From Alphaproteobacteria bacterium (GTDB lineage Bacteria; Pseudomonadota; Alphaproteobacteria; Rs-D84), in the NCBI GenBank assembly GCA_017642565.1, contig JAGCOU010000041.1, positions 1 through 32,247 on the forward strand: a DNA stretch of 32,247 bases, written 5' to 3'. Numbering within the stretch: position 1 is the stretch's first letter; each line of letters opens with the position of its first letter. This document shows positions 1 through 22,831 of this stretch, piece after piece. A program made the translations under genes and the position numbers. Under the pieces are notes generated by a model. That model had not been told where the DNA came from. It was given only the letters and a program-made list of their open reading frames with translations, and made no database searches.

Positions 1-767
1 CCCAATACAGGTTGCAAATTGCCATCACTTTCAAATTTAGCATTTGGGCTGCTGGTTGAATCTTTGTCGTCGTGACCCGCCATTACAGACAGCAACAATG
101 CGGCATCTTCAACCGTTCTGGTAATTGGACCCGGAGTGTCCAAACTTGACGCAAATGCAACGCATCCCCAACGAGAACATAAACCGTATGTAGGTTTTAA
201 ACCAACCAAACCTGTGATTGAACATGGAAAACGGATAGAACCACCTGTATCTGTTCCTGTGGCTGCTATTGCCAAGCCAGATGCAACGGCACTGGTTGAA
301 CCACCAGAAGAACCACCTGCGGTTAATCTTTTTTCGATTTGCCATGGACTAACAGGGGCACCAAAATAGGAAGTTTTTGAAAATGTTCCCATTGCGAATT
401 CGTCCAAATTTGATTTGCCCAATAATACTGTTCCTGCATCAATGAATTTTTGAGAAATAGTTGATTCATATTGTGGAACGAAATTTTCAAGCATATGTGA
501 TGCCGCAGTTGTACGAATGCCACGCGTTGCAAACAAATCTTTCATTGCAATAGGCATACCATCTAATGCCAATGTGTTCCCGTTGGCGTATCTTTCATCT
601 GATTTAGCAGCATCTTCCAAAGCACGTTCTGGTGTATTTGTAATATAGCAATTTAATTGTTTGCCATATTTTTCAATACGTGCCAAATATGCGCGTGTTA
701 ATTCAGTCGCACTGATTTCGCGAGATTTTAATTTTTCTAGTGCTTGTTTTATAGTCAGGTTTATCAT
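1..767 (-). CDS. gatA: Glu-tRNA(Gln)/Asp-tRNA(Asn) amidotransferase subunit A, N-terminal part (runs off left edge)
   Basis: Absent from the ORF track because no stop lies in the window. Reverse-complement translation from ATG 767-765 stays open to position 3: MINLTIKQALEKLKSREISATELTRAYLARIEKYGKQLN...GMPIAMKDLFATRGIRTTAASHML...GKSNLDEFAMG...TAGGSSGGSTSAVASGLAIAATGTDTGGSIRFP. This carries the amidase signature GGSSGGS...GTDTGGSIR. Confidence 0.93.
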   Translation of the reverse strand, partial: MINLTIKQALEKLKSREISATELTRAYLARIEKYGKQLNCYITNTPERALEDAAKSDERYANGNTLALDGMPIAMKDLFATRGIRTTAASHMLENFVPQYESTISQKFIDAGTVLLGKSNLDEFAMGTFSKTSYFGAPVSPWQIEKRLTAGGSSGGSTSAVASGLAIAATGTDTGGSIRFPCSITGLVGLKPTYGLCSRWGCVAFASSLDTPGPITRTVEDAALLLSVMAGHDDKDSTSSPNAKFESDGNLQPVL

Positions 768-775
768 TTTCGTTC

Positions 776-1663
776 CTATTTTTTGTTTGTGTGTTCAAGT
801 TTTTGGATTAACTGATACGGTAACGCTGTTGTTCCTCTGGCTTTTATAAATTCCATAACATCACTTAATATTTGTATGTTATAGTATTCTTGTAAGCAGT
901 CTACTATATATTTAGAGACCCCTAATTTTTTTACAGGCATATTTAATTGCCTTTTTGTTAGTATATATTTTTTCGATTCATCTTGGTGGTTCTTTGGAAA
1001 TAAAAATTCACCAATATATTTTCTAATCAAAGGATTATGGCATTCGCCGTTACGAACACATTGTGTACAGCTGTAGTTGCAACATATGGGATTACCAAAA
1101 CCATAAGTGGCAGATGGAGAAAGAGATTGGATGGGACATGACATATGTTCCTTGTGTTCTGAGCCGTGATAATCTGGGTTAATTTTTATTATTAATTGAT
1201 CCTTTTTTGCACCATCAGCAAGTTTTCTAAGTTGTGATATTTTTGGGGTATTCCATAAACTTATTTGTATTTCTTCCAAATTATAAGATACACTAAAACC
1301 ACAACGTGTTGTTTCTTTGGAATTAATATTTTTAATTGTGTTTAAATAATCTTGTATTTCTTGTGGGGATTTGCGTGTCCTATAATCGCCACTATAATCA
1401 TAATTACGTGGTGATGTTAAAAGGACATTAGTTTCACGCCAAGAATATTCGTGCAAACAATCAAAAAAGTTTCGTTCAAATTCGTCGAAATTGATATTGT
1501 TCTTTTCACATAATTTTTTTAATTTGTCGGAATCAAAGATTGCAGACAAATCATGTACGGTATCAATCCCATTTGATAATAAAATATTTGTGATATGTTC
1601 AGGCATACCAAGATATTTGATTTTTATGTTTGCTTCGTCAAATGTTAAACCGCATATAGCCAT
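776..1663 (-). CDS. Hypothetical Cys-rich protein with RpoA-CTD-like helix-hairpin-helix modules at both ends
   Basis: 295-aa ORF whose stop lies 8 nt before the gatA ATG. The N-terminal LGMPEHITNILLSNGIDTVHDL and C-terminal LGVSKYIVDCLQEYYNIQILSDVMEF resemble the RNAP alpha C-terminal HhH. The central cluster CCNYSCTQCVRNGECH contains a CX3CX2C spacing. I recognise no family. Noticeably more AT-rich than gatA. Confidence 0.7.
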   Translation of the reverse strand: MAICGLTFDEANIKIKYLGMPEHITNILLSNGIDTVHDLSAIFDSDKLKKLCEKNNINFDEFERNFFDCLHEYSWRETNVLLTSPRNYDYSGDYRTRKSPQEIQDYLNTIKNINSKETTRCGFSVSYNLEEIQISLWNTPKISQLRKLADGAKKDQLIIKINPDYHGSEHKEHMSCPIQSLSPSATYGFGNPICCNYSCTQCVRNGECHNPLIRKYIGEFLFPKNHQDESKKYILTKRQLNMPVKKLGVSKYIVDCLQEYYNIQILSDVMEFIKARGTTALPYQLIQKLEHTNKK

Positions 1664-1677
1664 GTGTTTATAATTCC

Positions 1678-2079
1678 TTATCTCGTTTTATATTTGTTGG
1701 GATACAATTTGTGCGCGATTTTATAGGGGCATTTCCCTTTGCGCATGTTGTCGATACAGTCCCAAATACTGTGATGTTGTTCTGGTTTTTTTGTGCAATG
1801 GAATTTGATATCATCACAAAATATGTGTGCTTTCTTTATCATAGGAATTCCTGCACCAGTAAAATTATATTGTTCCGTTTCAATATGCATATTTATTAAA
1901 CAGTTGCAAACTTTGGCATCTTTTAATTGTGAAAGCGTTTTCTTGGTAATGCGTATTTTGTTGTTGGAACGGCCGTCATAAAAATAGCCAGAACGATGTA
2001 TCCAAGATGGATGCCCTTGGACATTTAAATCCAAAGACCATAATCTGTATATGTGCTTGGTCGTTCTTTTCTTTATCAT
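1678..2079 (-). CDS. Hypothetical Cys/His-rich small protein
   Basis: 133-aa ORF. Its ATG lies 2 nt after the gatC stop (TAAcaATG), and the G-rich end of gatC can act as its SD. The C-terminal FCDDIKFHC...WDCIDNMRKGKCPYKIAHKLYP loosely resembles the Cys region of the adjacent 295-aa ORF. Confidence 0.65.
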   Translation of the reverse strand: MIKKRTTKHIYRLWSLDLNVQGHPSWIHRSGYFYDGRSNNKIRITKKTLSQLKDAKVCNCLINMHIETEQYNFTGAGIPMIKKAHIFCDDIKFHCTKKPEQHHSIWDCIDNMRKGKCPYKIAHKLYPNKYKTR

Positions 2080-2081
2080 TG

Positions 2082-2378
2082 TTAATCCCCGTCCATAACC
2101 TTTGGTACTGCAAAATAACCACGAGATACGCCAGCAGTGTCTGGGTCATTAGCCAATATTTTATCGCGCATATTCGGTTCGGTTACAATATCTTCGCGCA
2201 ACGGCAATTTATGTTCCGCAGGGGATAACATAGGTTTTACACCAGTTGTATCAATCTTTTGTAATTTATCCAACCATTCGACAACGCTGTCTATGTTCAT
2301 TTTTTCCAATTTTTCATCAGGAATATCGATTTTTACTAAATCTGCAAATTTATGTAATTGTTGCTTGCTAAATGCCAT
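2082..2378 (-). CDS. gatC: Glu-tRNA(Gln)/Asp-tRNA(Asn) amidotransferase subunit C
   Basis: 98 aa. Typical GatC layout: ...VKIDIPDEKLEKM...VVEWLDKLQKIDTTGVKPM...LREDIVTEP..RDKILANDPD...GYFAVPKV. Confidence 0.9.
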   Translation of the reverse strand: MAFSKQQLHKFADLVKIDIPDEKLEKMNIDSVVEWLDKLQKIDTTGVKPMLSPAEHKLPLREDIVTEPNMRDKILANDPDTAGVSRGYFAVPKVMDGD

Positions 2379-2408
2379 TTTCTTGTCCTATTGTTTCAAA
2401 GCATGAAA

Positions 2409-2436
2409 ATTATACAATGATTTTGCTTAAATTCAA
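2409..2436 (-). promoter_or_regulatory. Sigma70-type promoter for gatC operon (TTGAAT-N16-TATAAT)
   Basis: On the minus strand, TTGAAT is at 2436-2431, followed by a 16-nt spacer and TATAAT at 2414-2409. This lies about 30 nt upstream of the gatC ATG. Confidence 0.55.
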
Positions 2437-2461
2437 GGTTTTTTCTGTGCAAAACAAACAT

Positions 2462-2773
2462 TTATCTTGGTTGTCTGCGCTGGTTGTTAATATAGTTTTG
2501 TAAAAATTTATCGTCTATCATGTTTTTGAATGTTGGACTGTTTGTATACCTGGGGTCTGAGACAATAAGACCGATAATACCAACTTGTTCGCCCACAGAA
2601 TATGAAAATTTTCCATTATACTTGTTTAGCGCGCCGATTTCCCATGGATATTTGTCTGTGCGATACATTTCTATTTGATATTCTACATATTCTGATGTGC
2701 GAGCCAAATCTACTGGTATCATACATGTATTACATGCAGTGATTGATATTTGACCTGTGATTTTATATTTCAT
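2462..2773 (-). CDS. Hypothetical protein (103 aa)
   Basis: ORF with an ATG start, same orientation as gatC and upstream of it. No recognisable motifs. Confidence 0.5.
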   Translation of the reverse strand: MKYKITGQISITACNTCMIPVDLARTSEYVEYQIEMYRTDKYPWEIGALNKYNGKFSYSVGEQVGIIGLIVSDPRYTNSPTFKNMIDDKFLQNYINNQRRQPR

Positions 2774-2843
2774 GTCTGTGCCTTTTTTTAAACTTGTAAA
2801 ATATTATTTGTCGTATATACTTTCAATGTAAAAGGACTGTACA

Positions 2844-3290
2844 ATGATTTTATGTGATTGCAAGGATTTTCCGCGAATTGGACGCATAATTGGTTTAGAT
2901 TGGGGGTTGCGCAGATGTGGTGTGGCTGTCGCAGATGAAAATCGCGGATTTGTGTTCACTAGACCCCAATTAAATGTTAAAAGTCAGGATGAATTGATTA
3001 AGAATGTTTTAACAATTATTGCAGAAGATAGGCCTGTTGGGTTGGTTATTGGTTTGCCACTTCACGCTGATGGCAGTGATAGTGATACTACAAAATTGGT
3101 TCGTGAATTTGCTGATTTGTTATCTAAACAAACAGATTTGCCTATAATTTTTGTTGAAGAAAATTTAACAAGTGCCGCAGCCCAAGAAGAAATAGGGCGC
3201 AAAAGCATCACAAAAATTAAACAAGAACTGGATTCTGTGTCAGCTAAAATAATCCTTGAAAACGCAATCGCTTTGTTAAAAAGACTTTAA
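2844..3290 (+). CDS. ruvX: Holliday junction resolvase-like pre-16S rRNA nuclease YqgF/RuvX
   Basis: 148 aa. Has the N-terminal RIIGLDWGLRRCGVAVAD motif (YqgF G-L-D-x-G-x-x-R-x-G-x-A), then GLVIGLPLHADGS and a C-terminal SAKIILENAI. Confidence 0.85.
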   Translation: MILCDCKDFPRIGRIIGLDWGLRRCGVAVADENRGFVFTRPQLNVKSQDELIKNVLTIIAEDRPVGLVIGLPLHADGSDSDTTKLVREFADLLSKQTDLPIIFVEENLTSAAAQEEIGRKSITKIKQELDSVSAKIILENAIALLKRL

Positions 3291-4349: not shown

Positions 4350-5210
4350 TTAAAAAAGACGTGTTTGTGTAAGAATAGCAAGTATTAACGCCAAATTTAT
4401 CCCTATGGCAGTCAACGCATATCCATGACGAATGTCTTTGAAGAAATCTGCCTTGCGTTTTGTATACCACAAAGCAAACAGTAACAATAATGTTCCAGAC
4501 CATATAACTGTTGGGATGCCTGTGATAAAGCATTTACAGAACAATAAAAACAAAAATGCTACCAATGTATTATTAAAATTCGCCAAGACCCAATCATTTA
4601 ATTTACTAAACCATTTGCATTTGATTTGTAAATTTGGTTTGACAGATGTTGTTCCTTTGAATAAATAGCCTGGCGTCCATAACAAAAAGAATCCGAACGG
4701 CATAGATAAAATTGTCTTCCATGTTGATATACCGAGTGTTTTGCAGCGTTTGTATTTTGCATAAATACCAGCAATAGAAACACCCAACAGATATGCAGAT
4801 AAAATTAATAATAATGTGAATAGTATAAAGAAAATAGTCGGGTGCATTAAATATGCCATCATTATTTTCATCTTTAATGCGTTGCCATTTGAACCTAGGC
4901 CAAGAATAGCAATAAACGATGAAAGAATCCCAATTAAAGACGCGGCATTCGTTATAGCAACAAAATCATTTTGATGTATATCATCATGTGGTAATTTCTT
5001 TATCAGATACCAAACAGAAAATACAAAAGTAAAGACAAGGCACATGTACATTATTAACATAGAGTCCAGGTTTAATACAGTTTGTACCGCAGAAAATATT
5101 AAACTTAGTATTAACCCAAGTCCTAGAAACATAACGGAAAACATTAATGGTTTACTTAAAACCCAAGTTTTCAATTGATTTTGTTTTTCTTGTCTTTTTG
5201 TTTTTTGCAT
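4350..5210 (-). CDS. Hypothetical polytopic membrane protein
   Basis: 286 aa with about 8 hydrophobic segments. Lies directly downstream of sufC on the same strand. No family recognised. Confidence 0.6.
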   Translation of the reverse strand: MQKTKRQEKQNQLKTWVLSKPLMFSVMFLGLGLILSLIFSAVQTVLNLDSMLIMYMCLVFTFVFSVWYLIKKLPHDDIHQNDFVAITNAASLIGILSSFIAILGLGSNGNALKMKIMMAYLMHPTIFFILFTLLLILSAYLLGVSIAGIYAKYKRCKTLGISTWKTILSMPFGFFLLWTPGYLFKGTTSVKPNLQIKCKWFSKLNDWVLANFNNTLVAFLFLLFCKCFITGIPTVIWSGTLLLLFALWYTKRKADFFKDIRHGYALTAIGINLALILAILTQTRLF

Positions 5211-5927: not shown

Positions 5928-7271
5928 TTATTCTTTTTTTAAAGCCATTTGAATTAACTGTTTTGATTCTACCAAAAACTCCATAGGTAATCTAGAAATT
6001 ATTGGTGATGCGTTTGCGCCAACAACAAGCGCAACGGCTTCATCTTCTTCCAACCCACTTTGCATGAGATAGAGCAGGGTGTTTTTATCAATTGCACCAG
6101 TTGTTGCTTCGTGAGATTGTTGATTAAGACCATTGGAATGAACAATGGTTGGAATAGTATTTGCAGTGGCATTGTCGCCAAGGATTCGGCTGTCGCATTT
6201 GCAAGCGTTTATGCCGTCTTTGCCAGCAAAAGATACAAGACTGCGAAATGTTTGATGCGAATAATCTGTGGCGATGCCGTATGAAACGATATTTGATTTT
6301 GTATCATTTCCAATATGAATCATTTTTGTTCCTGTATCTGCTTGTTGAATGCCTCGTGTAATAGACAGAGAATAAAAATCACTGTGAGATTTGTCGCCGT
6401 ATAAAATAGTAGACGGATACTTCCAAGTCATACTCGAACCTATTTCAATTTGTGTCCAATCAAGTCCTGCATTTTTATAACATTTTCCGCGTTTAGTCAC
6501 AAAATTTAATATGCCGTTTGCGTCGTGTTTAAAATCGCCGTATACGGCAGAATCTCCCGCATACCAATTTTGAACTGTGGAATATTTTACATAAGCGTTG
6601 TCTTTGACAATGATTTCCACAACGCCACTGTGTAACTGGTGATTTGGTCGGCGAGGAGCGCTGCAACCTTCCATATAAGAAAGCGAAGATTCTTCTTCGG
6701 CTATGATAAGAGTTCTTTCAAATTGTCCTATTTTTGCAGTTTCGATTCTAAAATAACTCGCCAAATCTATAGGACATTTTACGCCACGTGGAATATAAAC
6801 AAATGTTCCGTCTGAAAATACCGCGGCGTTCAGTGCTGCAAAAAAATTATCGTCATATGGAACGACAGTGCCGAGATATTGTCGAACTAAATCAGGGTGT
6901 TTTTCTACTGCTTCTGAAAGGGGTAAAAATATTATACCGAGTTTTTGTAATTCTTCGGTATAAGATGTATGAACAGATTTACTGTCAATCACGGTGTCTG
7001 TCGCCATACCAAGCAGTGCGCGTTGCTCTGCTTCTGGGAGACCCATTTTGTCATAAGTTTCTTTTAATTTCGAATTATCAATTTTTTGTTTTTCGTTGTA
7101 ATAATTCAAAGAATCATAATCTATGGGCGCATAGTCTATTTCAGCCCAGTGCGGTTCTTTCATCTTTTGCCATTTTTCAAAAGCTGACAGCCGCCAGTCT
7201 AATAACCATTCTGGCTCTTTGCGCAAGGATGAAATTTTGCGAATAAGTTTTTCGTTTAATGTTTTTTTCAT
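5928..7271 (-). CDS. sufB: Fe-S cluster assembly scaffold SufB
   Basis: 447 aa. Contains FERTLIIAEEESSLSYMEGCSAP and a C-terminal region with beta-helix-like repeats typical of the SufB/SufD family. Lies 4 nt upstream of sufC. Confidence 0.9.
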   Translation of the reverse strand: MKKTLNEKLIRKISSLRKEPEWLLDWRLSAFEKWQKMKEPHWAEIDYAPIDYDSLNYYNEKQKIDNSKLKETYDKMGLPEAEQRALLGMATDTVIDSKSVHTSYTEELQKLGIIFLPLSEAVEKHPDLVRQYLGTVVPYDDNFFAALNAAVFSDGTFVYIPRGVKCPIDLASYFRIETAKIGQFERTLIIAEEESSLSYMEGCSAPRRPNHQLHSGVVEIIVKDNAYVKYSTVQNWYAGDSAVYGDFKHDANGILNFVTKRGKCYKNAGLDWTQIEIGSSMTWKYPSTILYGDKSHSDFYSLSITRGIQQADTGTKMIHIGNDTKSNIVSYGIATDYSHQTFRSLVSFAGKDGINACKCDSRILGDNATANTIPTIVHSNGLNQQSHEATTGAIDKNTLLYLMQSGLEEDEAVALVVGANASPIISRLPMEFLVESKQLIQMALKKE

Positions 7272-7810
7272 TTATCGGTTGATGCTAGTGCTTGTGCTTG
7301 GGCAAAAAATGTTAGAGATTGTCCCAAAAGACCGTCTGTAAATGTTGTCGATAAAATTCCGTCAGTATCAGTTGAAGACATGTGCTGTAAAAACATATTG
7401 GCACGATTCAAATAATGACTGACATTGTGTGAAATGTTTGTATCAAGTTTTATCGCACGACGCAATTTTTCTAAAACAAAAGGATTCTTTGCATATTCGT
7501 CCATAATTCCACCAAGTGCCCGCCAAAGAGGGTGTTCAGAAGTTGTTCGTGGCATGATATCAATGGCAGCCATAATAGGAATCAGGTCTTGTAATAAATC
7601 TTGATAGATAATTTCAGCCTTGTCAGTAGTATCGTTAACGGACATTTTATTTTTGAGTAAATTTTGCATTTTAACAATTAAATTATACTGAAATGTCAAA
7701 GTTTTTGCCATTTCGCGAACGTTCCTGTTGGTGCTTATCGTTAAGAGTAAACCTGCGATTGAACCAAGTGCACAAACCATAAGCACAATTAAAATAATCA
7801 TATCTTCCAT
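7268..7810 (-). CDS. Hypothetical protein with N-terminal TM anchor, translationally coupled to sufB
   Basis: 180 aa. N-terminal hydrophobic helix IILIVLMVCALGSIAGLLLTI. Its stop overlaps the sufB start (ATGA at 7268-7271). Confidence 0.55.
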   Translation of the reverse strand: MEDMIILIVLMVCALGSIAGLLLTISTNRNVREMAKTLTFQYNLIVKMQNLLKNKMSVNDTTDKAEIIYQDLLQDLIPIMAAIDIMPRTTSEHPLWRALGGIMDEYAKNPFVLEKLRRAIKLDTNISHNVSHYLNRANMFLQHMSSTDTDGILSTTFTDGLLGQSLTFFAQAQALASTDK

Positions 7811-7948: not shown

Positions 7949-7980
7949 TATAAATGATAATGGAAAAGAAAGGAAAAAAG

Positions 7981-8889
7981 ATGTTCCACAAAATTTGTGT
8001 TTTTATCGCTGTGGCAGGGGTCACAGGTTTTGCATTTGCTGCGAATAGAACGCAACAGATTGTCACTTCAGAAGTCTTTGGCGATACAGTCGAAGAAGTA
8101 GAAGAAGATGTAAATCGTGGCGAAAGAGTTCAAACTTTTTATGAGCCAGAGCCAGTGTATTACGAAGACACTGTTTATCAGGGGGCGCCAGTGTGGCCGA
8201 TGCCTGGTTCAGAGGCTGATGTTGAAATCGCATGTGGTGAACCTGGATGCGTTGAACAAAATAAGATTGTATCTCATGTTGGTGCGGGTTTGGTTATTGA
8301 AAATAATATTAACACAATCGGTACTGGTTGGACAGGTGGCCCAAATATTCATAATGGTATAATGATTCCTGCTGGTTTTGACTACGAATGTGCTAATAAT
8401 GCAGAAATGCCATTGATGCGCCGCGAAATGATGGAAGACGATGGTGGTTCTGTGTTGGCTATGTCCCGCAGTTCGCGTAAAACTTGTAATAAACAGGCGG
8501 ATTCGTATGCTATGTTTGCACAACGTGCTGGTTTTGCGCCTGAAAAAACTTGCAATAAAACAATGGGCGTTAATGACAGAGATGTTTCTGTGAATGAGTA
8601 TGTTGATGAAGAAAGCACAGAGCCTGCACAAGATCAGGTTCGTTCATGGGTCGTGGCGAGTGGACAAACCCTGCGTCAAGTTTTGCAATCTTGGTGTGAC
8701 AAAGAAGGATGGGATTTGGTTTGGACAACTGCGCGCGAATATCCAATAGAAGCGAGTGCGGTATTCAAAGGGCGCTTTGTAGATGTTGCATCGGCTTTGG
8801 TTCGTAATTTTGAACGTGCAACACCAATTCCTTATGCAAAATTTTATAAGGGTAATAGGGTGATTGTGGTTTCGACTTCGGAAGAATAA
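7981..8889 (+). CDS. Secreted TcpQ/PilL-like type IVb pilus biogenesis protein
   Basis: Start reassigned to ATG 7981 (SD AGGAAA upstream). Signal peptide MFHKICVFIAVAGVTGFAFA/AN. The C-terminal WVVASGQTLRQVLQSWCDKEGWDLVWTTAREYPIEASAVFKGRFVDVASALVRNF matches my memory of the TcpQ/PilL C-terminal domain. Confidence 0.6.
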   Translation: MFHKICVFIAVAGVTGFAFAANRTQQIVTSEVFGDTVEEVEEDVNRGERVQTFYEPEPVYYEDTVYQGAPVWPMPGSEADVEIACGEPGCVEQNKIVSHVGAGLVIENNINTIGTGWTGGPNIHNGIMIPAGFDYECANNAEMPLMRREMMEDDGGSVLAMSRSSRKTCNKQADSYAMFAQRAGFAPEKTCNKTMGVNDRDVSVNEYVDEESTEPAQDQVRSWVVASGQTLRQVLQSWCDKEGWDLVWTTAREYPIEASAVFKGRFVDVASALVRNFERATPIPYAKFYKGNRVIVVSTSEE

Positions 8890-8920
8890 AGCCTTAACAA
8901 AATAGGGACGGGGGACAAAG

Positions 8921-10552
8921 ATGAAAATTTCTTTAAATATCTGTTTATTTAGTTGTTTGTTTAGTTTTGTACTTGCTGGATGTACATTACACGAATCGGC
9001 TAAGGTATCCGCAGAGGTGGATCGAGATTTTGTTAATGCTTATGAAGCGTTTGAAATGGCAAAAAATCCTCGTGCCAAGGTGGCAAGCGGTGACACCGTC
9101 ACTATGAGCGAAGGTGTATGGTTGGGTAACAAATCTACATTACAGGAACATAAAAATTCATTGCCTGCTAAATTTGAAACAGATACAGGGGTGACTATGT
9201 TGTTGAACGAGCCTGTAACTCTCCAGGTTTTGGCTAATGACATAAATTCCATCACAGGTATTCCCGTAAAAATAGATAGCCAGGTTGATGCTGAAAAGTT
9301 AAGAAAGACTGTGGATGTTGCGTATACAGGTAAATTGTCTGGCTTGCTTTCGCAAATCGCGACAGATTTAGATTTGCTTTGGTACTATGACAAAGACTCT
9401 ATCGTATTTTATGAAACAGAAACAAGAACATATACATTGTATGCGTTGGGAACAGATGTATCTTATCAGTCTTCGGTCCAAACAGATAGTGGTAACCAGG
9501 TTTCTTTGGAATCTACTTTAAAAGAATGGGACGAAGTAGAATCTACTATTAATTCTATTATAAATAATTCTAAGAATGCACAATTCACAGTATCACGCAG
9601 TTTAGGGACAATTACGGTAACTGCGTCTCCGTCTGTTTTGAATCGTGTCGGTGAATATATTGCAAAACAAAATAAACGGTTGTCACAATTAGTGACGATT
9701 GATGTCAAAGTATTGCAAGTGTCTTTAACGAATAATTCTGCGTTTGGGTTGAATTTAGCGGCAGCAATTAATTCTGCCTCAGGCTTAAATATCGTTGCAA
9801 ATCCAAAGAATAATTTATCTTTGACCGAATCGAGTTCGATGAATGTTGCTGTGTTGTCAAATGCAGTTTCTGCTTTGACTGGTGCAACGCATTTGGATGC
9901 AACTGGCAACGTAGTTTCTGGCGCTTATACTAACGATCAAATCAATAATGGTTCGATGGCGCGAATCGCTGGAACAAACGCTTTGATAGAGGCTCTGGCA
10001 AAGCAGGGCAAAGTGTCTTTGGTTACAAATGTGGGTGTTACAACGCGTAATAATCGTGTCGCACCCGTGACTAATACAAAAACCACAGGTTACATTAAAC
10101 GTTTCGAATCGCGTAATTTTACAACTGTTGAATCGAGTACTGTTGACCAGGCTGATTTGGAAACAGGATTTTCGATGCAATTGTTGCCTAATGTTTTGGA
10201 AAACGGCAAGATATTGTTGTTGTTCAAAATGTCTGTTCGTGAATTGTTAAAGATGTCAACGCAAACTATCGGGACATTCACATTGCAACTGCCAGAGGTT
10301 GAAGAACGTTCTTTCATGCAAGAAGTAATAATGGAATCAGGACAAATGTTGGTGGTTTCTGGGTTTGAAAAACAAAAGAACGATGATACCAGATATGGAC
10401 TTGGCGATGCTGACTTTATGGCATTATCTGGTTCTCGCGAAACCGGAGCAACTCGTGAAGTATTGGTTGTTATCTTGACACCACAAGTTTTGGTCAGCCC
10501 GCTGGATGCAGAAAAAAATATACAACAGCATTGGGGTGCCCCTCTGAACTAA
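8921..10552 (+). CDS. Outer-membrane lipoprotein secretin, PilN/TcpC-like (type IVb pilus secretin family)
   Basis: 543 aa. Lipobox VLAG-C at residues 17-21. Secretin-type C-terminal domain: VTIDVKVLQVSLTNNSAFGLNL ... GQMLVVSGFEKQKNDDTRYGLGD ... REVLVVILTPQVL. Lies 31 nt downstream of the TcpQ/PilL-like gene. Confidence 0.75.
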   Translation: MKISLNICLFSCLFSFVLAGCTLHESAKVSAEVDRDFVNAYEAFEMAKNPRAKVASGDTVTMSEGVWLGNKSTLQEHKNSLPAKFETDTGVTMLLNEPVTLQVLANDINSITGIPVKIDSQVDAEKLRKTVDVAYTGKLSGLLSQIATDLDLLWYYDKDSIVFYETETRTYTLYALGTDVSYQSSVQTDSGNQVSLESTLKEWDEVESTINSIINNSKNAQFTVSRSLGTITVTASPSVLNRVGEYIAKQNKRLSQLVTIDVKVLQVSLTNNSAFGLNLAAAINSASGLNIVANPKNNLSLTESSSMNVAVLSNAVSALTGATHLDATGNVVSGAYTNDQINNGSMARIAGTNALIEALAKQGKVSLVTNVGVTTRNNRVAPVTNTKTTGYIKRFESRNFTTVESSTVDQADLETGFSMQLLPNVLENGKILLLFKMSVRELLKMSTQTIGTFTLQLPEVEERSFMQEVIMESGQMLVVSGFEKQKNDDTRYGLGDADFMALSGSRETGATREVLVVILTPQVLVSPLDAEKNIQQHWGAPLN

Positions 10553-11913: not shown

Positions 11914-12729
11914 ATGAAGCATTTTATTTCAATAGCAGTGTTATCTTTGTTGGTTTGTGGTGCCCAGGCTGCACAGAATGGACGTGCTACGATGGCAGGA
12001 AAGACTGTTATGTCTGCGCCACGTGCAACCGCATCTATTAACCAATTAAATGGTATGGGGGCGCCTGTGGCAAATAATGTGCCAACAAATCAAATACCTT
12101 ATACGGAACCTGTTCAACCAACTCCTCCTGTGGAAGAAGTTGATAGACGCGAAGAAGAACGCAATGCCTGTATAAATAATAATATTGGTATTGGAAATAC
12201 TTTCGTGTGGGCTTCGCGTAATAGTGATACTTCTAATTATGCAGCCATGATGGAAGATGTTAACAATCCAAAGAACAATGTTTGTTTCGTGCGTGTGGAA
12301 TTGAAATCTGATGACGAATCGCGGGTTTCTGTTTCTGATATTCCTGCGAAATATTTTATGTGGGGCGAAAATATCGAATGTGGTTCTTGGGTAAACGAAA
12401 AAGATATGGAAAAACGTATCTTGGATGCTAAGAAAGGCGCGCGAATCGGCGGTATCGTTGCAAGTACTGTCGGTGGCGCAGGACTTGGCGTTGGTGTGAT
12501 GGAAGCGTTTGGAAACAAGGCTATCGGTGGTAAAGTCCAAGGACAGAAAGCCCTGGAAGGTGCTCAATTATACAGATCTCAATTGTTGGTTTACAAAGAA
12601 AAAAATATTACGGAATATAATAGAATCGTCAGTGCTTTGAAGGTTATCAAAGAATCTGGTTCTACGGAAGCTATTGGTAATGTAGATTATGCTACATACA
12701 AACCTTTGTTGGATGAATTTGCTAATTAA
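11914..12729 (+). CDS. Secreted hypothetical protein with glycine-zipper hydrophobic module
   Basis: 271 aa. Signal peptide MKHFISIAVLSLLVCGAQA/AQ. The module EKRILDAKKGARIGGIVASTVGGAGLGVGVMEAF is shared with the protein at 16116-16922. Confidence 0.7.
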   Translation: MKHFISIAVLSLLVCGAQAAQNGRATMAGKTVMSAPRATASINQLNGMGAPVANNVPTNQIPYTEPVQPTPPVEEVDRREEERNACINNNIGIGNTFVWASRNSDTSNYAAMMEDVNNPKNNVCFVRVELKSDDESRVSVSDIPAKYFMWGENIECGSWVNEKDMEKRILDAKKGARIGGIVASTVGGAGLGVGVMEAFGNKAIGGKVQGQKALEGAQLYRSQLLVYKEKNITEYNRIVSALKVIKESGSTEAIGNVDYATYKPLLDEFAN

Positions 12730-12743
12730 AAAGGAAGTAGAAT

Positions 12744-13259
12744 ATGAAAAAGTATTTGGTTTTGGCTTTGTTGTTGGTTCCAACTGTTTCTTTTGCGGCG
12801 CCATCTGTTCGTGTTTTGGGCAGTGGTTCTGGAACAACTGCTTCTTCGGCAACGGGGACGAAAATTACACCGGCTAAGACAGCAAATGTTTCCAAGGCTG
12901 CTGCAACTAATACAGGCAGAACTGCGTCTGGTTCTCGTATAGGAACTGTGCGTGCAATGCCAAAAGTGGGCAGTGGCACAGTTAGCACAACTGCATCTGG
13001 AACCGCATCAAGATTTCCTGTGATAACACCTGCTCATTCTTACAGCAGTGTGACAAAACCTCAAACAGCAAGTGGCACTACGATAAATGTAGATTTGGAT
13101 AATTATTATAATAAAGAAGAAGTTAATAATATTATCAATGCACTGAAAGAAGAAGACGACCCAAGAATTGATGCTATTAGATTGGTTGACCCTTCTACTC
13201 CTGGTTTGCATACCAAAGATTTGCCAAGCGATTATGTTTATATGTGGATAGAAGAATAA
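12744..13259 (+). CDS. Secreted Ser/Thr/Gly/Ala-rich hypothetical protein
   Basis: 171 aa. Signal peptide MKKYLVLALLLVPTVSFA/AP, a low-complexity S/T/G/A-rich middle and an acidic C-terminus. Lies 14 nt after the preceding ORF, with an AAGGAAG SD. Confidence 0.65.
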   Translation: MKKYLVLALLLVPTVSFAAPSVRVLGSGSGTTASSATGTKITPAKTANVSKAAATNTGRTASGSRIGTVRAMPKVGSGTVSTTASGTASRFPVITPAHSYSSVTKPQTASGTTINVDLDNYYNKEEVNNIINALKEEDDPRIDAIRLVDPSTPGLHTKDLPSDYVYMWIEE

Positions 13260-13319: not shown

Positions 13320-14330
13320 ATGAATGCGTTATTAAAAAAACTTTTGATATTGCGAACCTCTGGAATTGGTCCGGCGAAATATAATGCGCTGGTGGAACAA
13401 TATGGCGATGATGATGCGATTATAGATGCATTGGCGCCTGTGCAAGATTTTATCGATTCTGTGAAACGCGAAATAGATTTAGCATATAGTTTAAACATAG
13501 AATATATTTGTGATTCCGATTCGAGATATCCAAAACAATTAAAGGCAATTAAAAATCATCCAATAATAATCTCTGCGCGTGGTAACACAGATACTTTGCT
13601 TAAATCAAGTGTGGCTGTGGTTGGAACGCGACATTCTACGGCGGCTGGAATGAATTTTATTGCTGATTTGGCTGAAACATTTGCGGCGCATAATTTTTCT
13701 GTGGTTTCTGGTATGGCGATGGGAACAGATACTGCGGCGCATGTTGGGGCACTAAAGGCGGCTGGTTGTGCACAAACTATTGCGGTGTTGGCTGGGGGCG
13801 TTGATTATATTTGGCCACTCGAAAACGAATCGTTATATTATGAAATCTTGGAACGAGGCGTTGTAATCAGTGAAATGCCTGTGGGAATGAAACCAAATGC
13901 ACAGAATTTTATTCAAAGAAATCATTGGGTTGCAGGACTTGCTGATTTTTTAATCATCGGTGAAGCAGATGCAAAATCAGGAAGTATGACCACTGCCCGA
14001 TTCGCTTTGAAATATAAAAAGCGCGTATTTGCGGTGCCTGGACACCCAAGCGATTCTCGAAGCGAAGGACCTAATTCTTTGATAAAAAGTGGCGAAGCAA
14101 CATTGTGTATGTCTTCAAAAGATTTTTTTGATGATGAAAATGTCAAGACAGATAAAAAAATTGTGAGACCGCAAAATGATATTCTCGATAAATTAGGAAT
14201 GATTCCTGTCTCGGAATCTGTATTGGCAAATCTTGTCAAAAAACCAGTTCCGGAAATCAAAGCTGATTTAGTGGTCTTGGAATTACAAGGTTTAATACGA
14301 AAACAAGATGGCGGTTATGTCTTAAATTGA
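13320..14330 (+). CDS. dprA: DNA processing protein DprA (Smf)
   Basis: 336 aa. Rossmann-like core with VVGTRHST..G...A..LA, SGMAMGTDTAAHVGAL and GSMTTARFALKYKKRVFAVPG. Confidence 0.85.
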   Translation: MNALLKKLLILRTSGIGPAKYNALVEQYGDDDAIIDALAPVQDFIDSVKREIDLAYSLNIEYICDSDSRYPKQLKAIKNHPIIISARGNTDTLLKSSVAVVGTRHSTAAGMNFIADLAETFAAHNFSVVSGMAMGTDTAAHVGALKAAGCAQTIAVLAGGVDYIWPLENESLYYEILERGVVISEMPVGMKPNAQNFIQRNHWVAGLADFLIIGEADAKSGSMTTARFALKYKKRVFAVPGHPSDSRSEGPNSLIKSGEATLCMSSKDFFDDENVKTDKKIVRPQNDILDKLGMIPVSESVLANLVKKPVPEIKADLVVLELQGLIRKQDGGYVLN

Positions 14331-14617
14331 TTTTTTAAATGTATATACAGTGTATATACAAAGTGCGAAAAACCAAGAAAAAAACGAATCGTTGTCAAAA
14401 AATAAATCGTAGATTTTAACTTAACATTTAGTTGCAAACAGAAATTAATTTTATACATTAATCGCATATCCAAACGATTGATTTTTATCAATCACTAAAG
14501 CGAGAGAAAAGAGTAGGGCACGCATAAATAATAAATGTAAATTTACTGTTTATGTGGGTGTGGTTCTTTAACCACAAAAAGGCGTAAACTCTTTTGGAAG
14601 GAAAAGGAGCAAACGAC

Positions 14618-15898
14618 ATGCAAGTAACAGCAACATTGAAGAACCCAAACGTCGAATCAATCATGGGGGCTTTTGCGGCCAAAATAGATTCAAGCGCGTT
14701 TGCAACATGGATTGCCCCTCTTAAAATGGAAGTGTGTCAAAAGTGTTTAAACCTTGTTGCGCAAAACCAATTTACCGCCGACTATGTCAAAAGAGAATAC
14801 GGAGAAATCCTGAAGGCAATAGCGGCGGATTTTCTTTTAGATTTAAATATTGTGGCTGGGGCGACTGTTAATAATATTGCAAAATGTGCAAATGATAATG
14901 TGGTTTGTGAATTTGTTCCTGCTGCAAAAACTCAAAGCGCAAAACAAAACGGTTTTGATAAATTTATCTGTTGTGATGAAAATATGTTTGCTGTTGCTGC
15001 GTGCAAAAAAATAGCAATGGCGAATGCTTCATTTTCTCAGTTATTTATATATGGTGGAAGCGGTGCTGGGAAATCTATGTTATTAGATTGTATTTGCGAT
15101 TCGTTTTCTGGGCATGTTGTTAAAATGACAGGTGGTCAATTTGTTGCAGATTTTGCTCGCTCTTTGCGCGATAAAACGATTTTTTCTTTTAAAGATTACT
15201 GTCGTAATTGTGATATATTTATGATGGACGATGTGTGTGCGTTGGCTGGTAAACGTGCAAGCATGGATGAATTTTTGCAATTGATTATGGATTTGAAAAC
15301 TGCTGGCAAAAGTATTGTCCTTACTGCGAATTGTGCGCCAAGCGCGTTAAATGGTTTCGATAGACGTGTTCAATCTTTGTTTGCTTCTGGTTTGGTTGTT
15401 GATGTTGTTGCACCAAATGCTTATGTTCGTCGTTCTATGTTGGTGCGCGCAGGTGTCAAAACAGATGTCGCAGACGAATTGTCAAAATCTATTGCTGCTG
15501 ATGGACATTTAGTAGACGGCATTATCAACAAAATAAAAACATACACAGAATTAATGGGCGAAAGCGTTAATATGGAAATTGCTTCTCGTTTGTTGGCTGA
15601 TGTGTTGCAAAAAAATAAAACACCAATTGCTATGGTAAAGGCAATGTGTGAAAAAATGTCTGTGTCATACGAAGAAGTTTGTGGTAATTCTCGTGCTCGC
15701 CGTCTTGTGCGTGCGCGTCAAATAATGATGGTTGCATTAAAGTCTGCAACAAATTTATCTTTGACAGAAATTGGTAATGTTTGTGGTGGACGCGATCATG
15801 CCACAGTGGTTTATGCACTTAATCAAATTGAAAATCAAAAGACAGTAGATTTGATGCTGAATGCAGAAATAGACGCGATGATTAAATTGTGCAAATAG
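14618..15898 (+). CDS. dnaA: Chromosomal replication initiator DnaA
   Basis: Start set at ATG 14618, preceded by an AAGGAG SD at a standard short spacing. The track TTG at 14594 is unlikely. AAA+ core: LFIYGGSGAGKSMLL, then a Walker B box (IFMMDD). C-terminal DNA-binding domain: ...LSLTEIGNVCGGRDHATVVYA. Confidence 0.9.
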   Translation: MQVTATLKNPNVESIMGAFAAKIDSSAFATWIAPLKMEVCQKCLNLVAQNQFTADYVKREYGEILKAIAADFLLDLNIVAGATVNNIAKCANDNVVCEFVPAAKTQSAKQNGFDKFICCDENMFAVAACKKIAMANASFSQLFIYGGSGAGKSMLLDCICDSFSGHVVKMTGGQFVADFARSLRDKTIFSFKDYCRNCDIFMMDDVCALAGKRASMDEFLQLIMDLKTAGKSIVLTANCAPSALNGFDRRVQSLFASGLVVDVVAPNAYVRRSMLVRAGVKTDVADELSKSIAADGHLVDGIINKIKTYTELMGESVNMEIASRLLADVLQKNKTPIAMVKAMCEKMSVSYEEVCGNSRARRLVRARQIMMVALKSATNLSLTEIGNVCGGRDHATVVYALNQIENQKTVDLMLNAEIDAMIKLCK

Positions 15899-16065: not shown

Positions 16066-16094
16066 TTGATTTAAACGTTCCTTTGTGTTATACT
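16066..16094 (+). promoter_or_regulatory. Sigma70-type promoter (TTGATT-N17-TGtTATACT)
   Basis: TTGATT at 16066-71, a 17-nt spacer ending in TGt, and TATACT at 16089-94. It overlaps the track TTG start at 16083, so that start is rejected. Confidence 0.6.
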
Positions 16095-16115
16095 ATTTAC
16101 GATAGAGGGAGTGCC

Positions 16116-20867: not shown

Positions 20868-20892
20868 GTTTCTCCTTAGGTTTATGTTTATA

Positions 20893-22369: not shown

Positions 22370-22831
22370 ATGAGACAAGAATCAGGTCGTTCTATGATTG
22401 AAATGGTCGGCGTATTGGCTATTATGGGTATGTTAACAGCAACTGCTTTTGCTTTGATTTCTCTGGGAATTAATAGACAAAAACAGGCACGCGTAGTTGA
22501 CGATGTGGTTACAATGGTTGCCGGGGTGCGAAGCCTTTTGGGTGATTATGACGATTTTTCAAATATTGATAATGCTACGATTTTCGGTGCAATATCGGTA
22601 AGTAATAAAAACCCATACGGCGGAACATACGAATTGTCTGTGGATAGTTCTAATACTCGTCAATTTATTGTAAAAATAAACGGATTAACAAAAAGTGATT
22701 GTGAGGCGCTGAAAACAAAAGCATGGACAGAATCTGTGGGATATGTTTCTTCGGATCATAAAGAGAGTGGGGCTTCTGCGAATTGTGTTGATGGAAAAGA
22801 AAATGTCGTTTCCATTGTGTACGGCGAATAA
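22370..22831 (+). CDS. Type IV pilin-like protein (prepilin-type N-terminus)
   Basis: 153 aa. MRQESG/RSMIEMVGVLAIMGMLTATAFALI has a short leader ending in Gly, Glu at +5 and a hydrophobic alpha1-N helix. Two C-terminal Cys (C..C) could form a disulfide-bonded loop. The +1 residue is Arg, which is atypical. Confidence 0.6.
   Translation: MRQESGRSMIEMVGVLAIMGMLTATAFALISLGINRQKQARVVDDVVTMVAGVRSLLGDYDDFSNIDNATIFGAISVSNKNPYGGTYELSVDSSNTRQFIVKINGLTKSDCEALKTKAWTESVGYVSSDHKESGASANCVDGKENVVSIVYGE

Follow-up and report, generated by a model that had tools for sequence, protein, structure and literature searches.

Flexible islets and integration hotspots combine fixed core flanks with varying content, gain genes by homologous recombination in those flanks, and hold accessory genes that are younger than their surroundings. 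A lead of a different kind is offered by Ogr/Delta of the P2/P4 phages, small Cys4 zinc-finger activators that work via the RNAP alpha subunit. In genomes of about 0.9 Mb, the shedding of dispensable DNA is to be expected. The hyperplastic regions of T4-type phages are shuffled via conserved PeSL cassettes, each a promoter plus a stem-loop terminator (Arbiol et al. 2010, PMC2839356), and free-standing homing endonuclease genes, such as seg and mob of T4, are characterised in general terms by Edgell et al. 2010 (PMC2988022).

The locus described here lies in the gat operon of Candidatus Enterousia, uncultured gut bacteria (order Rs-D84, genomes of ~0.9 Mb). It is an operon-embedded flexible islet, or hotspot of horizontal gene transfer: its content varies among relatives, and its inserts have a history distinct from that of their surroundings. 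A literature search returned no account of an insertion separating gatC from gatA, the Enterousia literature being concerned with genome reduction and metabolism only, and the two genes at the center of this work, ORF133 and ORF295, are previously undescribed.

Anatomy of the locus

The window, by which we mean the whole stretch of DNA analysed (32,247 nt), carries on its minus strand the order gatC, ORF133 (133 aa), ORF295 (295 aa), gatA. Its relevant features are as follows, with families A to D defined in the next section.

1..767, minus strand: 5′ part of gatA, the downstream conserved anchor of the hotspot, truncated by the window edge
776..1663, minus strand: ORF295, a “C-A-C” fusion cassette (alpha-CTD-like helix-hairpin-helix (HhH), family-A Cys domain, alpha-CTD-like HhH)
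1678..2079, minus strand: ORF133, a divergent family-A protein of the “CDDIKF.C ... GKCPYKIA” subtype
2082..2378, minus strand: gatC, the upstream conserved anchor (PF02686, TIGR00135)
2409..2436, minus strand: promoter-like TTGAAT-16-TATAAT (10/12 matches), upstream of gatC and within the family-B insertion tract
2462..2773, minus strand: ORF103, a family-B cassette inserted between ruvX and gatC
2844..3290, plus strand: ruvX (YqgF), the divergent neighbor bounding the locus (PF03652 in syntenic loci)

A sequence-only reading of this DNA had described two same-strand ORFs wedged tightly between gatC and gatA, and the coordinates and spacers are exactly as it claimed: 2 nt (TAAcaATG) between gatC and ORF133, 14 nt between ORF133 and ORF295, and 8 nt between ORF295 and gatA. 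Its naming of the flanking genes is equally sound. GatC passes the cut-offs of both PF02686 (49 bits, cut-off 23) and TIGR00135 (66.3 bits, cut-off 47.1), and GatA scores 282 bits with PF01425 and 263 bits with TIGR00132 (residues 11–241), the latter below the full-length cut-off because the window holds only 255 GatA residues. The ribosome-binding signals are interleaved with the preceding genes: the GGGGA Shine-Dalgarno of ORF133 sits within the last gatC codons, and the AGGA Shine-Dalgarno of gatA overlaps the TAG stop of ORF295.

The same reading had seen no terminator in the cassette and a promoter upstream of gatC. The former stands: from 767 to 2436 no terminator-like site was found in the gat orientation. 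The promoter-like site is indeed present, but such sites occur across the region at chance level only. Judged by geometry alone, ORF133 and ORF295 are almost certainly co-transcribed and translationally coupled with gatC and gatA. Upstream of gatC, the gap to ruvX, which holds ORF103, measures 465 bp in the window versus ~37 bp in most relatives. An Rfam scan of the whole window matched no RNA family and ARAGORN found no tRNA in it; among the proteins that the window encodes are the competence-type DprA, pilus secretin and TcpQ.

Four cassette families at one site

We retrieved 80 Enterousia loci and compared 79 species representatives, to which L001, L004, and the window were added to give 82 loci; all genomes compared are MAGs. 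The proposal that gatC–gatA spacing would reveal a presence/absence polymorphism in related genomes is borne out: the two genes are adjacent (1–59 nt) in 32/79 species representatives and separated by one to four same-strand ORFs in the other 47. Over the 82 loci gap lengths span 1–1885 bp (32 empty, 50 filled), and in 50/50 filled loci the ORFs occupy the whole gap on the gat strand, with junctions of 1–25 nt. The neighboring suf and AI-2E junctions are invariant, the SD of neighboring junctions being 7–45 bp. Presence of the cassettes is patchy on the phylogeny, and sister species carry different families.

All of the gap ORFs examined (n = 79) belong to four lineage-restricted families, A–D, with A-B, A-A, and C-A-C fusions also occurring. 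Family A is a Cys4 domain of ~130 aa in which C49, C127, and C136 are invariant and C104 and G134 nearly so, with no conserved His, Asn, Asp, or Glu; families B and D are ~90 and ~200 aa long, respectively; and family C is a true RNAP alpha-CTD joined to a coiled coil, with PF03118 scores of 59.1 and 41.7 bits against a cut-off of 23.8. The motifs stay conserved across family members that are 14–40% identical. Truncated or internally deleted copies exist (74 aa in L018, 55 aa in L021), as do relics (L034, L084) and chimeras.

The cassette proteins are basic and free of hydrophobic segments. A+T-rich genomes account for part of the high pI. We asked whether their Lys/Arg-rich C-termini might be a secretion signal and dropped the idea: the tails overlap the A-rich Shine-Dalgarno region of the next gene, and hydrophobic segments are absent.

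The families are almost confined to this place. An HMM scan of ~1 Mb of flanking sequence plus the 32-kb window found families A–D only here and directly upstream of gatC, and an exhaustive search of 1.84 billion representative proteins gave 25 clusters only; every cluster whose genomic context was checked (L086–L092) lies in this lineage's kind of locus. A word-indexed protein search with the family-A profile returned 11 proteins. In metagenomes, where the sequence-only reading had asked whether the pair would be phage-borne, plasmid-borne or always gat-linked, context-blind pattern matches lie between gatC and gatA wherever the flanks are readable. A relative with 50% G+C has the order gatC-A-A-D-gatA. 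The exception is P0024, a family-A/HhH protein outside the gat locus, which adjoins a tRNA gene.

Domain architecture of ORF295 and ORF133

ORF295 divides into three domains, the middle one bearing a short insertion:

1448..1663, minus strand: ORF295 residues 1–72, N-terminal alpha-CTD-like HhH (PF03118, hhalign, AF2)
980..1435, minus strand: ORF295 residues 77–228, family-A domain (classical-A-only HMM, 56.9 bits)
779..958, minus strand: ORF295 residues ~236–295, C-terminal alpha-CTD-like HhH (hhalign to family C)
1076..1084 (approximate), minus strand: window-specific 9-nt insertion that adds “CCN” and creates CX3CX2C

The RNAP-alpha-CTD-like HhH modules that had been proposed at both termini of ORF295 are supported by profile–profile comparison with family C, itself bona fide PF03118: in hhalign the N-terminus reaches 89.7% probability (E 1.9e-6) and the C-terminus 95.4% (E 1.9e-8). 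Directly against PF03118, ORF295 reaches 20.2 bits (E 5e-4) over residues 10–44 only, under the gathering threshold of 23.8 bits, and the P0024 region homologous to the ORF295 C-terminus matches PF03118 with E 0.006. The AlphaFold2 models of the two proteins have pLDDT values of 47.6 and 45.2 and are too poor for placing the four conserved Cys; the usable and only confident part is ORF295 residues 10–70 (pLDDT 70–86), a compact helical HhH fold. Its top Foldseek folds in the PDB are the RAD51C N-terminus and RNAP alpha-CTD, with TM scores of 0.57–0.76 (normalised to target), at E values of at least 0.59 that are not significant; Foldseek gave no PDB match below E 0.59.

The Cys cluster of ORF295, to which the sequence-only reading had drawn attention, survives in part. 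C121, C199, C208, and G206 are conserved and C176 is near-invariant. The CX3CX2C spacing, in contrast, stems from the 9-nt insertion (the “CCNYSC” part), which is unique to the window and missing in P0001, P0002, L026, and L202. An Fe-S or radical-SAM-like interpretation of CX3CX2C was accordingly rejected, the spacing being unconserved in homologues and no radical-SAM Pfam match being present.

Paralogy of the two proteins via a common Cys domain, which had been suggested by eye, holds at the level of sequence profiles: a leave-subfamily-out family-A HMM scores 56.9 bits on ORF295 (residues 77–228) and 18.9 bits on ORF133 (residues 45–132), against a best score of 10.1 bits among 400 shuffled sequences. 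ORF133 is strongly basic (pI 9.8, net charge +16). Both are real genes. Homologues of the pair are found at 66–92% identity, those of ORF295 including P0001 (92%) and P0002 (76%), and the dN/dS values (0.16–0.20 for ORF133, 0.15–0.31 for ORF295, 0.13–0.31 overall) are those of purifying selection.

Database searches and base composition

Searches of Pfam, NCBIfam, PHROGs, and PADLOC with ORF133, ORF295, ORF103, and representatives of families A–D gave nothing except alpha-CTD, leaving A, B, and D unmatched. In PADLOC the only match was a weak one, of the family-C HhH region to PglW (E 2e-6), with none for ORF133, ORF295, or ORF103. With families A, B, and D as profile queries, the PDB sequences yielded no significant match. 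The check by profile and structure that had been suggested for the two proteins places only the alpha-CTD-like modules near a known family; the AlphaFold2 models are poor outside the N-terminal HhH, and the Foldseek matches are not significant. No phage or plasmid homologue was found in IMG/VR (ORF295 as query), PHROGs, INPHARED, or PLSDB (tblastn for phage/plasmid); no GIY-YIG, HNH, LAGLIDADG, or His-Cys-box nuclease domain was matched by Pfam in families A–D; and neither the scanned ORFs of the window nor the loci yielded an intI integrase.

The low G+C content, which had been read as fitting a foreign origin, does not bear this out. The cassettes have 31–35% G+C (ORF295, 31.2%), inside the range of the native window ORFs (26–44%, median 38%). 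Across loci the arrays average 34% G+C versus 39% for the rest of each locus, and array composition follows that of the host (r = 0.71): the relative with 50% G+C carries an array of 46%. We therefore rejected G+C as a sign of foreign origin.

Exchange between species

Divergence between the window and L026 differs strongly from gene to gene: dS is 0.016 for ORF103, 0.11–0.12 for ORF133/ORF295, 0.83 for gatC, and 1.34 for gatA. ORF103 is 99% identical to its counterparts in both L026 and L008. Two tracts of recent exchange with L026 are visible:

2335..2995, no strand assigned: tract 1, ~5 differences in ~660 bp, with flanks 75–88% identical
720..2105, no strand assigned: tract 2, ~95% identity across ORF133 and ORF295

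Against L008, tract 1 spans ~2350–2890. Tract 2 covers only ~25 bp of gatC and ~47 bp of gatA in the comparison with L026, and ends at the ORF295 stop codon in that with L202. Overall, similar tracts end 25–150 bp beyond the inserts, at end points that differ between pairs. Four further independent cases of exchange were found. They involve, among others, L007/L014/L025, whose cassettes are 97–98% identical versus 84–85% and lie at different array positions, as well as L031/L045 and L001/L084.

The core genes are also mosaic, the window gatA being 94.7% identical to that of L008 versus a background of ~80%, and therefore general recombination is active here. That tracts are limited to the inserts could reflect either selection or drive. 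Synonymous conservation at the cassette ends (0.72–0.74 versus 0.35–0.55) is modest and was not accepted as a recombination signal, since constraints on translation initiation explain it equally well.

A model for the islet

Our preferred explanation, which we hold to be reasonably probable, is that ORF133 and ORF295 represent two cassettes from a flexible islet that is embedded in an operon, specific to Candidatus Enterousia and relatives, and swapped by short-patch recombination, and that their products most likely bind DNA or RNAP partners. The neighborhood of gatC is a hotspot accepting families A–D in gat orientation, as single genes, arrays of at most four, or fusions. Cassettes move between species as ORF-sized or pair-sized units, in tracts that run only ~25–150 bp into the conserved flanks; one cassette can occupy different array positions or have different neighbors, and cassettes fuse, shuffle, and disappear by internal deletion. 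There is no room for promoters or terminators of their own, each start having its Shine-Dalgarno in or just past the end of the preceding gene, and expression would come from read-through and translational coupling with gatC and gatA. DNA could be taken up by natural transformation, as DprA and the pilus secretin among only three such genes in the window would suggest, and short-patch homologous recombination would then be anchored on the highly conserved gatC 3′ end, the gatA 5′ end, and the conserved cassette ends. The essential, tightly coupled operon would both supply expression and make imprecise deletion costly.

The products are predicted to be soluble, basic, and cytoplasmic, with a putative structural Zn(Cys)4 site in family A and a minor-groove-binding HhH of the alpha-CTD type; given these predicted modules, binding of DNA or RNA polymerase partners is the most likely activity. 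They probably bind zinc and nucleic acids. Rather than belonging to the amidotransferase, they would be dispensable proteins that evolve fast and modulate transcription or the nucleoid, possibly as players in a genetic conflict.

Several other explanations deserve weighing. In one, the proteins would serve this lineage as added subunits or regulators of the amidotransferase or of translation, inherited vertically and kept in the operon for stoichiometric co-expression with GatCAB. This would agree with a gat linkage that is almost exclusive over deep divergence (including a relative whose RuvX is 48% identical), with translation-related neighbors (ruvX, gatCAB, tRNA-Phe, a MiaB-like gene), and with a gene arrangement that suggests translational coupling. 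The sequence-only reading had itself set such gat accessories against an insertion, and one half of this is seen: the genes are restricted to the lineage and linked to gat, but far from universal, 32 of the 79 species having no cassette, and they pass horizontally between members of the lineage while gatC and gatA do not move with them. Sister species differ in families, cassette content, copy number, and order vary freely, and the domains suggest DNA or RNA polymerase (alpha-CTD) rather than tRNA or GatCAB, which makes this a rather improbable account. A small but appreciable chance goes to conflict genes directed at phages or competitors, for example zinc proteins and soluble decoys of the alpha-CTD that titrate away phage factors aimed at RNAP alpha, spread across species by gene-specific sweeps. 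Such genes would be accessory, diversify fast, and cross species yet stay under purifying selection, all as found here; family C is a stand-alone alpha-CTD with a coiled coil; and the small modules, arrayed and fused, recall loci shaped by arms races. Counting against it are the single weak PADLOC match of an HhH region to PglW, the lack of relatives in PHROG or phage databases, and the lack of a toxin-like or nuclease-like partner.

The shape of the exchanged tracts raises the matter of homing. If some family encoded or recruited an activity that breaks the empty gatC–gatA junction, it could be copied in by double-strand-break repair with short co-conversion, and the intergenic position between highly conserved essential genes, the patchy presence and decay by internal deletion, the low-divergence tracts centered on the insert with end points 25–150 bp into the flanks that vary by pair, and the DNA-binding-type HhH modules fused to a Cys-rich domain would all be in keeping with selfish cassettes of this sort. 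However, no family shows GIY-YIG, HNH, LAGLIDADG, His-Cys-box, or any other nuclease signature in Pfam, the invariant positions of family A are four Cys and a Gly, His, Asn, Asp, and Glu being absent from them, the site is common to four unrelated families, dN/dS of 0.13–0.31 speaks for lasting purifying selection, and filled and empty alleles would have to meet in one cell, which is rare for chromosomes. We consider selfish homing unlikely, and to the same degree its fuller form, in which a new class of ORF-sized selfish chromosomal elements would home into gat junctions by an unrecognised nuclease or recombination-stimulating activity of the Cys4 domain, aided by the HhH, with the operon as expression platform and landing pad. 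The origin first proposed, in which foreign DNA of a phage or plasmid entered this genome's gat operon in a single recent event, now seems very improbable. ORF295 does lie near the low end of the window ORFs in G+C, the arrays are ~5 points below the rest of their loci, and exchange of the cassette pair is recent in comparison with its flanks; but the pair is one state of an old variable array that runs through the lineage: the same four families, almost confined to the locus, fill the same site in 47/79 species and in the relative with 50% G+C, their composition tracks that of the host, IMG/VR, INPHARED, PLSDB, and PHROGs hold no homologue, and the 25 clusters among 1.84 billion proteins fall in this lineage's kind of locus in every context checked (L086–L092). 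Least credible of all are spurious ORFs or pseudogene debris in an enlarged intergenic spacer: the truncated copies and relics of some relatives (L018, L021, L034, L084) would fit, but the gaps are fully filled by ORFs on the gat strand in every filled locus, selection is purifying, and motifs are kept across 14–40% identity.

In these genomes of ~0.9 Mb, an essential tRNA amidotransferase operon hosts a private, fast-turnover set of four uncharacterised families that cross species as single-ORF units. If the preferred explanation of an islet swapped by short-patch recombination is true, flexible islets can exist within tightly coupled essential operons, and conserved coding termini can act as landing pads for short-patch interspecies exchange. 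It would also bring three new protein families together with stand-alone RNAP alpha-CTD paralogues, whose role may be to modulate transcription or the nucleoid, or may lie in genetic conflict or selfish drive. For annotation a caution follows: membership of this operon implies no role in the operon's pathway.

Comparison with known systems

At the level of the proteins, the closest known relative is RNAP alpha-CTD (PF03118): family C lies above the threshold, and ORF295 shows kinship with that family at either end. Unlike in the RNAP alpha subunit, the modules here stand alone or are fused, without the alpha N-terminal domain. With Ogr/Delta the cassettes share the pairing of a Cys4 domain with the alpha subunit's sphere, in that the Cys4 domain is fused to, and co-resident with, alpha-CTD-like modules; they differ in having no Ogr_Delta Pfam match at E ≤ 1, in Cys spacing and size, and in the lack of a phage context.

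At the level of the locus, integron gene cassettes are similar in being promoterless, co-oriented small ORFs in variable stacked arrays with expression from an upstream promoter (predicted here), but no intI was found in the window or the loci, and homology lies at the cassette gene ends instead of attC, for which the junctions of 1–25 nt leave no space between cassettes. Free-standing homing endonuclease genes likewise sit between essential genes, occur sporadically, show co-conversion-like flank similarity, and leave degenerating copies; in the four families, however, no nuclease domain or catalytic motif is detectable, and the flank tracts are very short, whereas free-standing endonucleases cut hundreds of bp away and drag longer tracts. 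Like chromosomal hotspots, the gat islet has conserved core flanks, variable content, and inserts younger than their surroundings. It differs from them in being placed within an operon that is essential and translationally coupled, where they fall between transcription units, in being built of single promoterless ORF units with junctions of 1–25 nt, in drawing on four lineage-private families instead of an open gene pool, and in involving no integrase, tRNA attachment site, or repeats. The hyperplastic regions of T4-type phages resemble it in holding small ORFans of unknown function between core genes, and in the ORF-sized insertion, deletion, and replacement among relatives by recombination at short conserved sequences that bound the ORFs; the gat islet, in contrast, belongs to a bacterial chromosome and not to a phage, and in place of cassettes of promoter plus stem-loop terminator, it is bounded by stop/Shine-Dalgarno/start junctions and conserved gene ends, no terminator-like sites having been found.

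Gene content of the gatC–gatA insert

In the window, gatC and gatA are separated by two inserted ORFs, and a third cassette lies upstream of gatC.

Genes of the gat region in the window
767 to window edge, minus strand: gatA (curated model match)
776-1663, minus strand: ORF295, inserted ORF, 295 aa
1678-2079, minus strand: ORF133, inserted ORF, 133 aa
2082-2378, minus strand: gatC (curated model match)
2462-2773, minus strand: ORF103, 103 aa, family B, third cassette, between ruvX and gatC

ORF calls and the curated models agree with the gene order, coordinates and junctions of the sequence-only reading, with spacers of 2, 14 and 8 nt between gatC, ORF133, ORF295 and gatA. A GGGGA, AAGGA or AGGA motif precedes each inserted ORF and gatA, placed in or just past the end of the previous gene. 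That the cassette region holds no terminator is matched by a consensus scan, which found no terminator-like site on the minus strand of the gat region. The promoter proposed upstream of gatC stands in part: the site is present (TTGAAT-16-TATAAT, 2436-2409), but such matches occur no more often than by chance in this A+T-rich DNA. The inserted tract of ORF103 (with 2379-2461 and 2774-2843) holds the sole near-consensus promoter-like site upstream of gatC.

Homologues of ORF133 are 66-91% identical to it, and those of ORF295 92% and 76%. Against three relatives, dN/dS (Nei-Gojobori) is 0.16-0.20 for ORF133 and 0.15-0.31 for ORF295, with gatC and gatA at 0.04-0.09. This coding conservation contradicts an explanation by spurious ORFs; judged by it, ORF133 and ORF295 are genuine genes.

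A variable site across related genomes

A GatA query against one genome per GTDB species gave 80 loci. Every one derives from a MAG, either of Candidatus Enterousia or of an unnamed gut/rumen alphaproteobacterium; the order Rs-D84 lineage has fermentative genomes of 0.75-1.0 Mb (PMC12306168). Homologue contigs are syntenic on both sides (TcpQ, sufBC, AI-2E permease, ruvX, gatC ... gatA, gatB, MiaB-like) and differ between gatC and gatA, one reading gatC-296aa-84aa-93aa-135aa-gatA and another gatC-129aa-gatA. The gatC-gatA distance ranges from 1 to 1885 bp (82 loci): the two genes are adjacent (1-59 nt) in 32 of the 79 species representatives, and in the other 47 the gap holds one to four gat-strand ORFs with junctions of 1-25 nt. 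The suspected insertion polymorphism is thus real, and relatives do not universally carry these genes. The control junctions p180-sufB, sufB-sufC, sufC-p282, p282-AI-2E and AI-2E-ruvX are almost invariant (medians 2-43 bp). Between ruvX and gatC there are 37 bp, or ~460 bp in four genomes, the window among them. On the GatA tree cassette content is patchy, and sister species are unlike.

Variation recurs at a second junction, gatB-miaB, which has small-ORF families of its own. Its gap (e.g. L001:11030-11577) spans -4 to 1281 bp, and its families are unrelated to families A-D of the gatC-gatA gap; over 71 loci measured, they include a 55-aa 'MKIVTIIEDNPITGVRYGTVE' protein (48 ORFs) and a 120-140-aa family (22 ORFs), and many of the ORFs terminate ...TKHK right before miaB. 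Past the window edge, 12/12 related loci scanned (e.g. L001:9372-9447, L026:7502-7577) have an antisense tRNA-Phe(GAA) gene in the gatA-gatB interval, so gatCA and gatB are probably separate transcription units in this lineage.

Four private families

All 79 gap ORFs fall by clustering into four families. The motifs of family A (48 ORFs, ~120-150 aa) are 'IPxxSC' and 'C..C...G(K/E)C.DEF(V/I)...IGKKLFADKY'; three of its Cys are invariant and a fourth nearly so, and a Gly is conserved too. Family B (15 ORFs, 80-103 aa) has 'YQLExY ... FSYSVG'; family C (7 ORFs) combines an RNA_pol_A_CTD domain, scoring 59.1 and 41.7 bits where the cut-off is 23.8, with a coiled coil after it; and family D comprises 9 ORFs of 170-237 aa. 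All four are basic (median pI 8.6-9.7) and without hydrophobic segments. Families A, B and D are new; in family C the domain is known and its stand-alone architecture is new. Fusions are seen (A-B, A-A, and C-like/A/C-like in ORF295), as are truncated copies, internally deleted copies and relics.

The paralogy of ORF133 and ORF295, noticed by eye, is real, since both outscore shuffled sequences with an HMM built from 36 'classical' A proteins only: ORF295 reaches 56.9 bits (residues 77-228) and ORF133 18.9 bits (residues 45-132), against 10.1 for the best of 400 shuffled controls. The helix-hairpin-helix modules placed at both ends of ORF295 are supported by profile-profile matches to family C (89.7% N-terminus, 95.4% C-terminus), and the N-terminus matches the RNA polymerase alpha C-terminal domain (alpha-CTD, PF03118) just under threshold. 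The CX3CX2C spacing, taken for an Fe-S-like motif, did not survive: the 'CCN' of 'CCNYSCTQC' is a 9-nt insertion unique to the window, and the spacing is not conserved. What is conserved is four Cys spread across the family A domain, a pattern that would suit a structural zinc site more than an Fe-S cluster.

Run over ~1 Mb of flanking sequence (80 species) and the other 30 kb of the window, HMMs of the four families found no member, ORF103 upstream of gatC aside. Exhaustive searching with HMMER through 1.84 billion representative proteins gave 25 clusters only. Divergent members with readable context lie again between gatC and gatA; a 50%-G+C relative, its RuvX only 48% identical, reads gatC-A-A-D-gatA. 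A context-blind DNA pattern scan of metagenome contigs yielded 13 true family A loci, all those with readable flanks between gatC and gatA. The single family A member found outside the gat locus, P0024 (260 aa; L090:1-1100, L091, L092), has an A core and a C-terminal alpha-CTD-like module; its gene comes immediately after a tRNA gene and a terminator-like hairpin, and is preceded by an A+T-rich spacer of its own. With P0024 as sole exception, the families are gat-linked wherever flanks are readable. No relatives were found in IMG/VR, PHROGs, INPHARED phages, PLSDB plasmids or PADLOC, and both a phage or plasmid gene and a known defence system were rejected on this basis.

Low G+C had been read as a sign of foreign origin. 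ORF295 (31.2%) and ORF133 (35.1%) lie within the 26-44% of window ORFs (window, 37%). Over 48 filled loci, array G+C has a mean of 34%, with 39% elsewhere in the locus; it follows host G+C (r = 0.71) and reaches 46% in the 50%-G+C relative. The low G+C of the cassettes is the mild bias towards A+T that accessory genes under weak constraint usually show, not a recent-foreign signature. A one-off foreign insertion is contradicted; as an account of origin it is too narrow, the same families filling the gap in 47/79 species.

Exchange between species

The unexpected result of the analysis is the contrast in divergence between cassettes and flanks. Between the window and L026, from another species representative, the flanks are 75-88% identical over 6 kb and dS is 0.83 for gatC and 1.34 for gatA, against 0.118 for ORF133, 0.111 for ORF295 and 0.016 for ORF103, the last being 99% identical to L026 and L008 with flanks at ~80-85%. 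Mismatch maps of the window and L026 show two near-identical tracts, ~2335-2995 and ~720-2105, with a diverged gatC between them, intruding only ~25-150 bp into flanking genes. The family B tract has other ends against L008 (~2350-2890), and similarity to L202 halts at the ORF295 stop codon, after which L202 has another A gene, not gatA.

Other loci behave likewise. One A gene is 97-98% identical across L007, L014 and L025 (flanks 84-85%), from ~10 nt before the ATG to the stop codon; it heads the array, next to gatC, in one species and closes it, next to gatA, in the others. The common cassette of L031 and L045 is 98.3% identical against 86% for the flanks, and that of L001 and L084 92.7% against 82-87%, with a deletion relic of a neighbouring cassette. 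On a short contig (L201:1-876, P0008) a chimera joins an ORF295 N-terminus to an ORF133 C-terminus: gatC is followed by a full ORF133 homologue and then by an ORF that opens with the N-terminal ~49 residues of the ORF295 type and switches at 'KLK|D' to another 133-type gene, of which it keeps the C-terminal two thirds. At the join the two parts have only 8 nt in common, too short an overlap for a k=141 assembly artefact. Units of one ORF or a pair have thus been swapped between species with very short flanking tracts, and fused, rearranged and deleted.

Core genes here are recombination mosaics in places as well, the window gatA 5' part (1-792 against L008:5976-6767) being 94.7% identical and the other shared region ~80%; recombination is therefore generally active in these bacteria.

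Other features of the window

TcpQ-domain and secretin proteins and DprA (7954-10552, 13320-14330) are candidate type IV pilus/natural-transformation functions, which could explain inter-species DNA exchange. As dnaA, a gyrB-like gene and dnaN lie in the window (14594-15898, 18256-20223, 26811-27920), the gat hotspot is within ~15-25 kb of a probable replication origin. For six ORFs of 153-286 aa (4350-5210, 7268-7810, 11914-12729, 12744-13259, 16083-16922, 22370-22831), Pfam gave no match at E <= 0.001; two of them (286 aa, 180 aa), which adjoin the AI-2E permease and sufB, show synteny and conservation among relatives. A UvrC-like ORF (20265-22320, minus strand) is short (475 aa), with GIY-YIG, UVR, RNase H-like and HhH domains present, and as listed shares 68 nt with the CDP-alcohol phosphatidyltransferase ORF downstream of it.

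Mechanism and alternatives

The array inside this essential operon consists of ORFs without promoters of their own; the set is variable and private to the lineage. Its cassettes would be expressed by read-through and translational coupling. Natural transformation may bring them in (the window encodes DprA, a secretin and TcpQ), and they would then be placed by short-patch recombination anchored on the very conserved gatC 3' end, gatA 5' end and cassette ends; imprecise cassette loss would be costly in a coupled essential operon. Given the basic character of all four families and their lack of hydrophobic segments, together with the alpha-CTD modules and the Cys4 domain, the products are plausibly cytoplasmic proteins binding nucleic acid or RNA polymerase partners. 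AF2 models of the window proteins are poor and gave no functional lead, and PDB profile searches with the cassette families were empty, so we hold this biochemical account with low confidence, and the evolutionary and architectural account with fair confidence.

The finding raises the question of what drives the spread of the cassettes, and with it come three uncharacterised protein families. Position, patchiness, decay and insert-centred tracts would all fit a homing-like selfish element, resembling free-standing endonuclease genes (PMC2988022), but a nuclease signature is found in none of families A-D, and a recognisable homing endonuclease was rejected for this reason. Dispensability, free variation and the separate histories of insert and flank do not suit an accessory role in GatCAB or translation, although the linkage to gat does. 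A role in conflict or defence would agree with the dynamics of the cassettes; direct evidence for it is absent.

Relation to known systems

The behaviour of the array most resembles that of flexible genomic islets (integration hotspots) and of T4-type phage hyperplastic regions, in which ORFans are shuffled via short conserved boundary cassettes (PMC2839356). Having neither attC nor intI, it is not an integron. Unlike islets and T4-type regions, the gat array sits inside an essential, coupled bacterial operon, consists of single promoterless ORFs with almost no spacer, and draws on only four private families.
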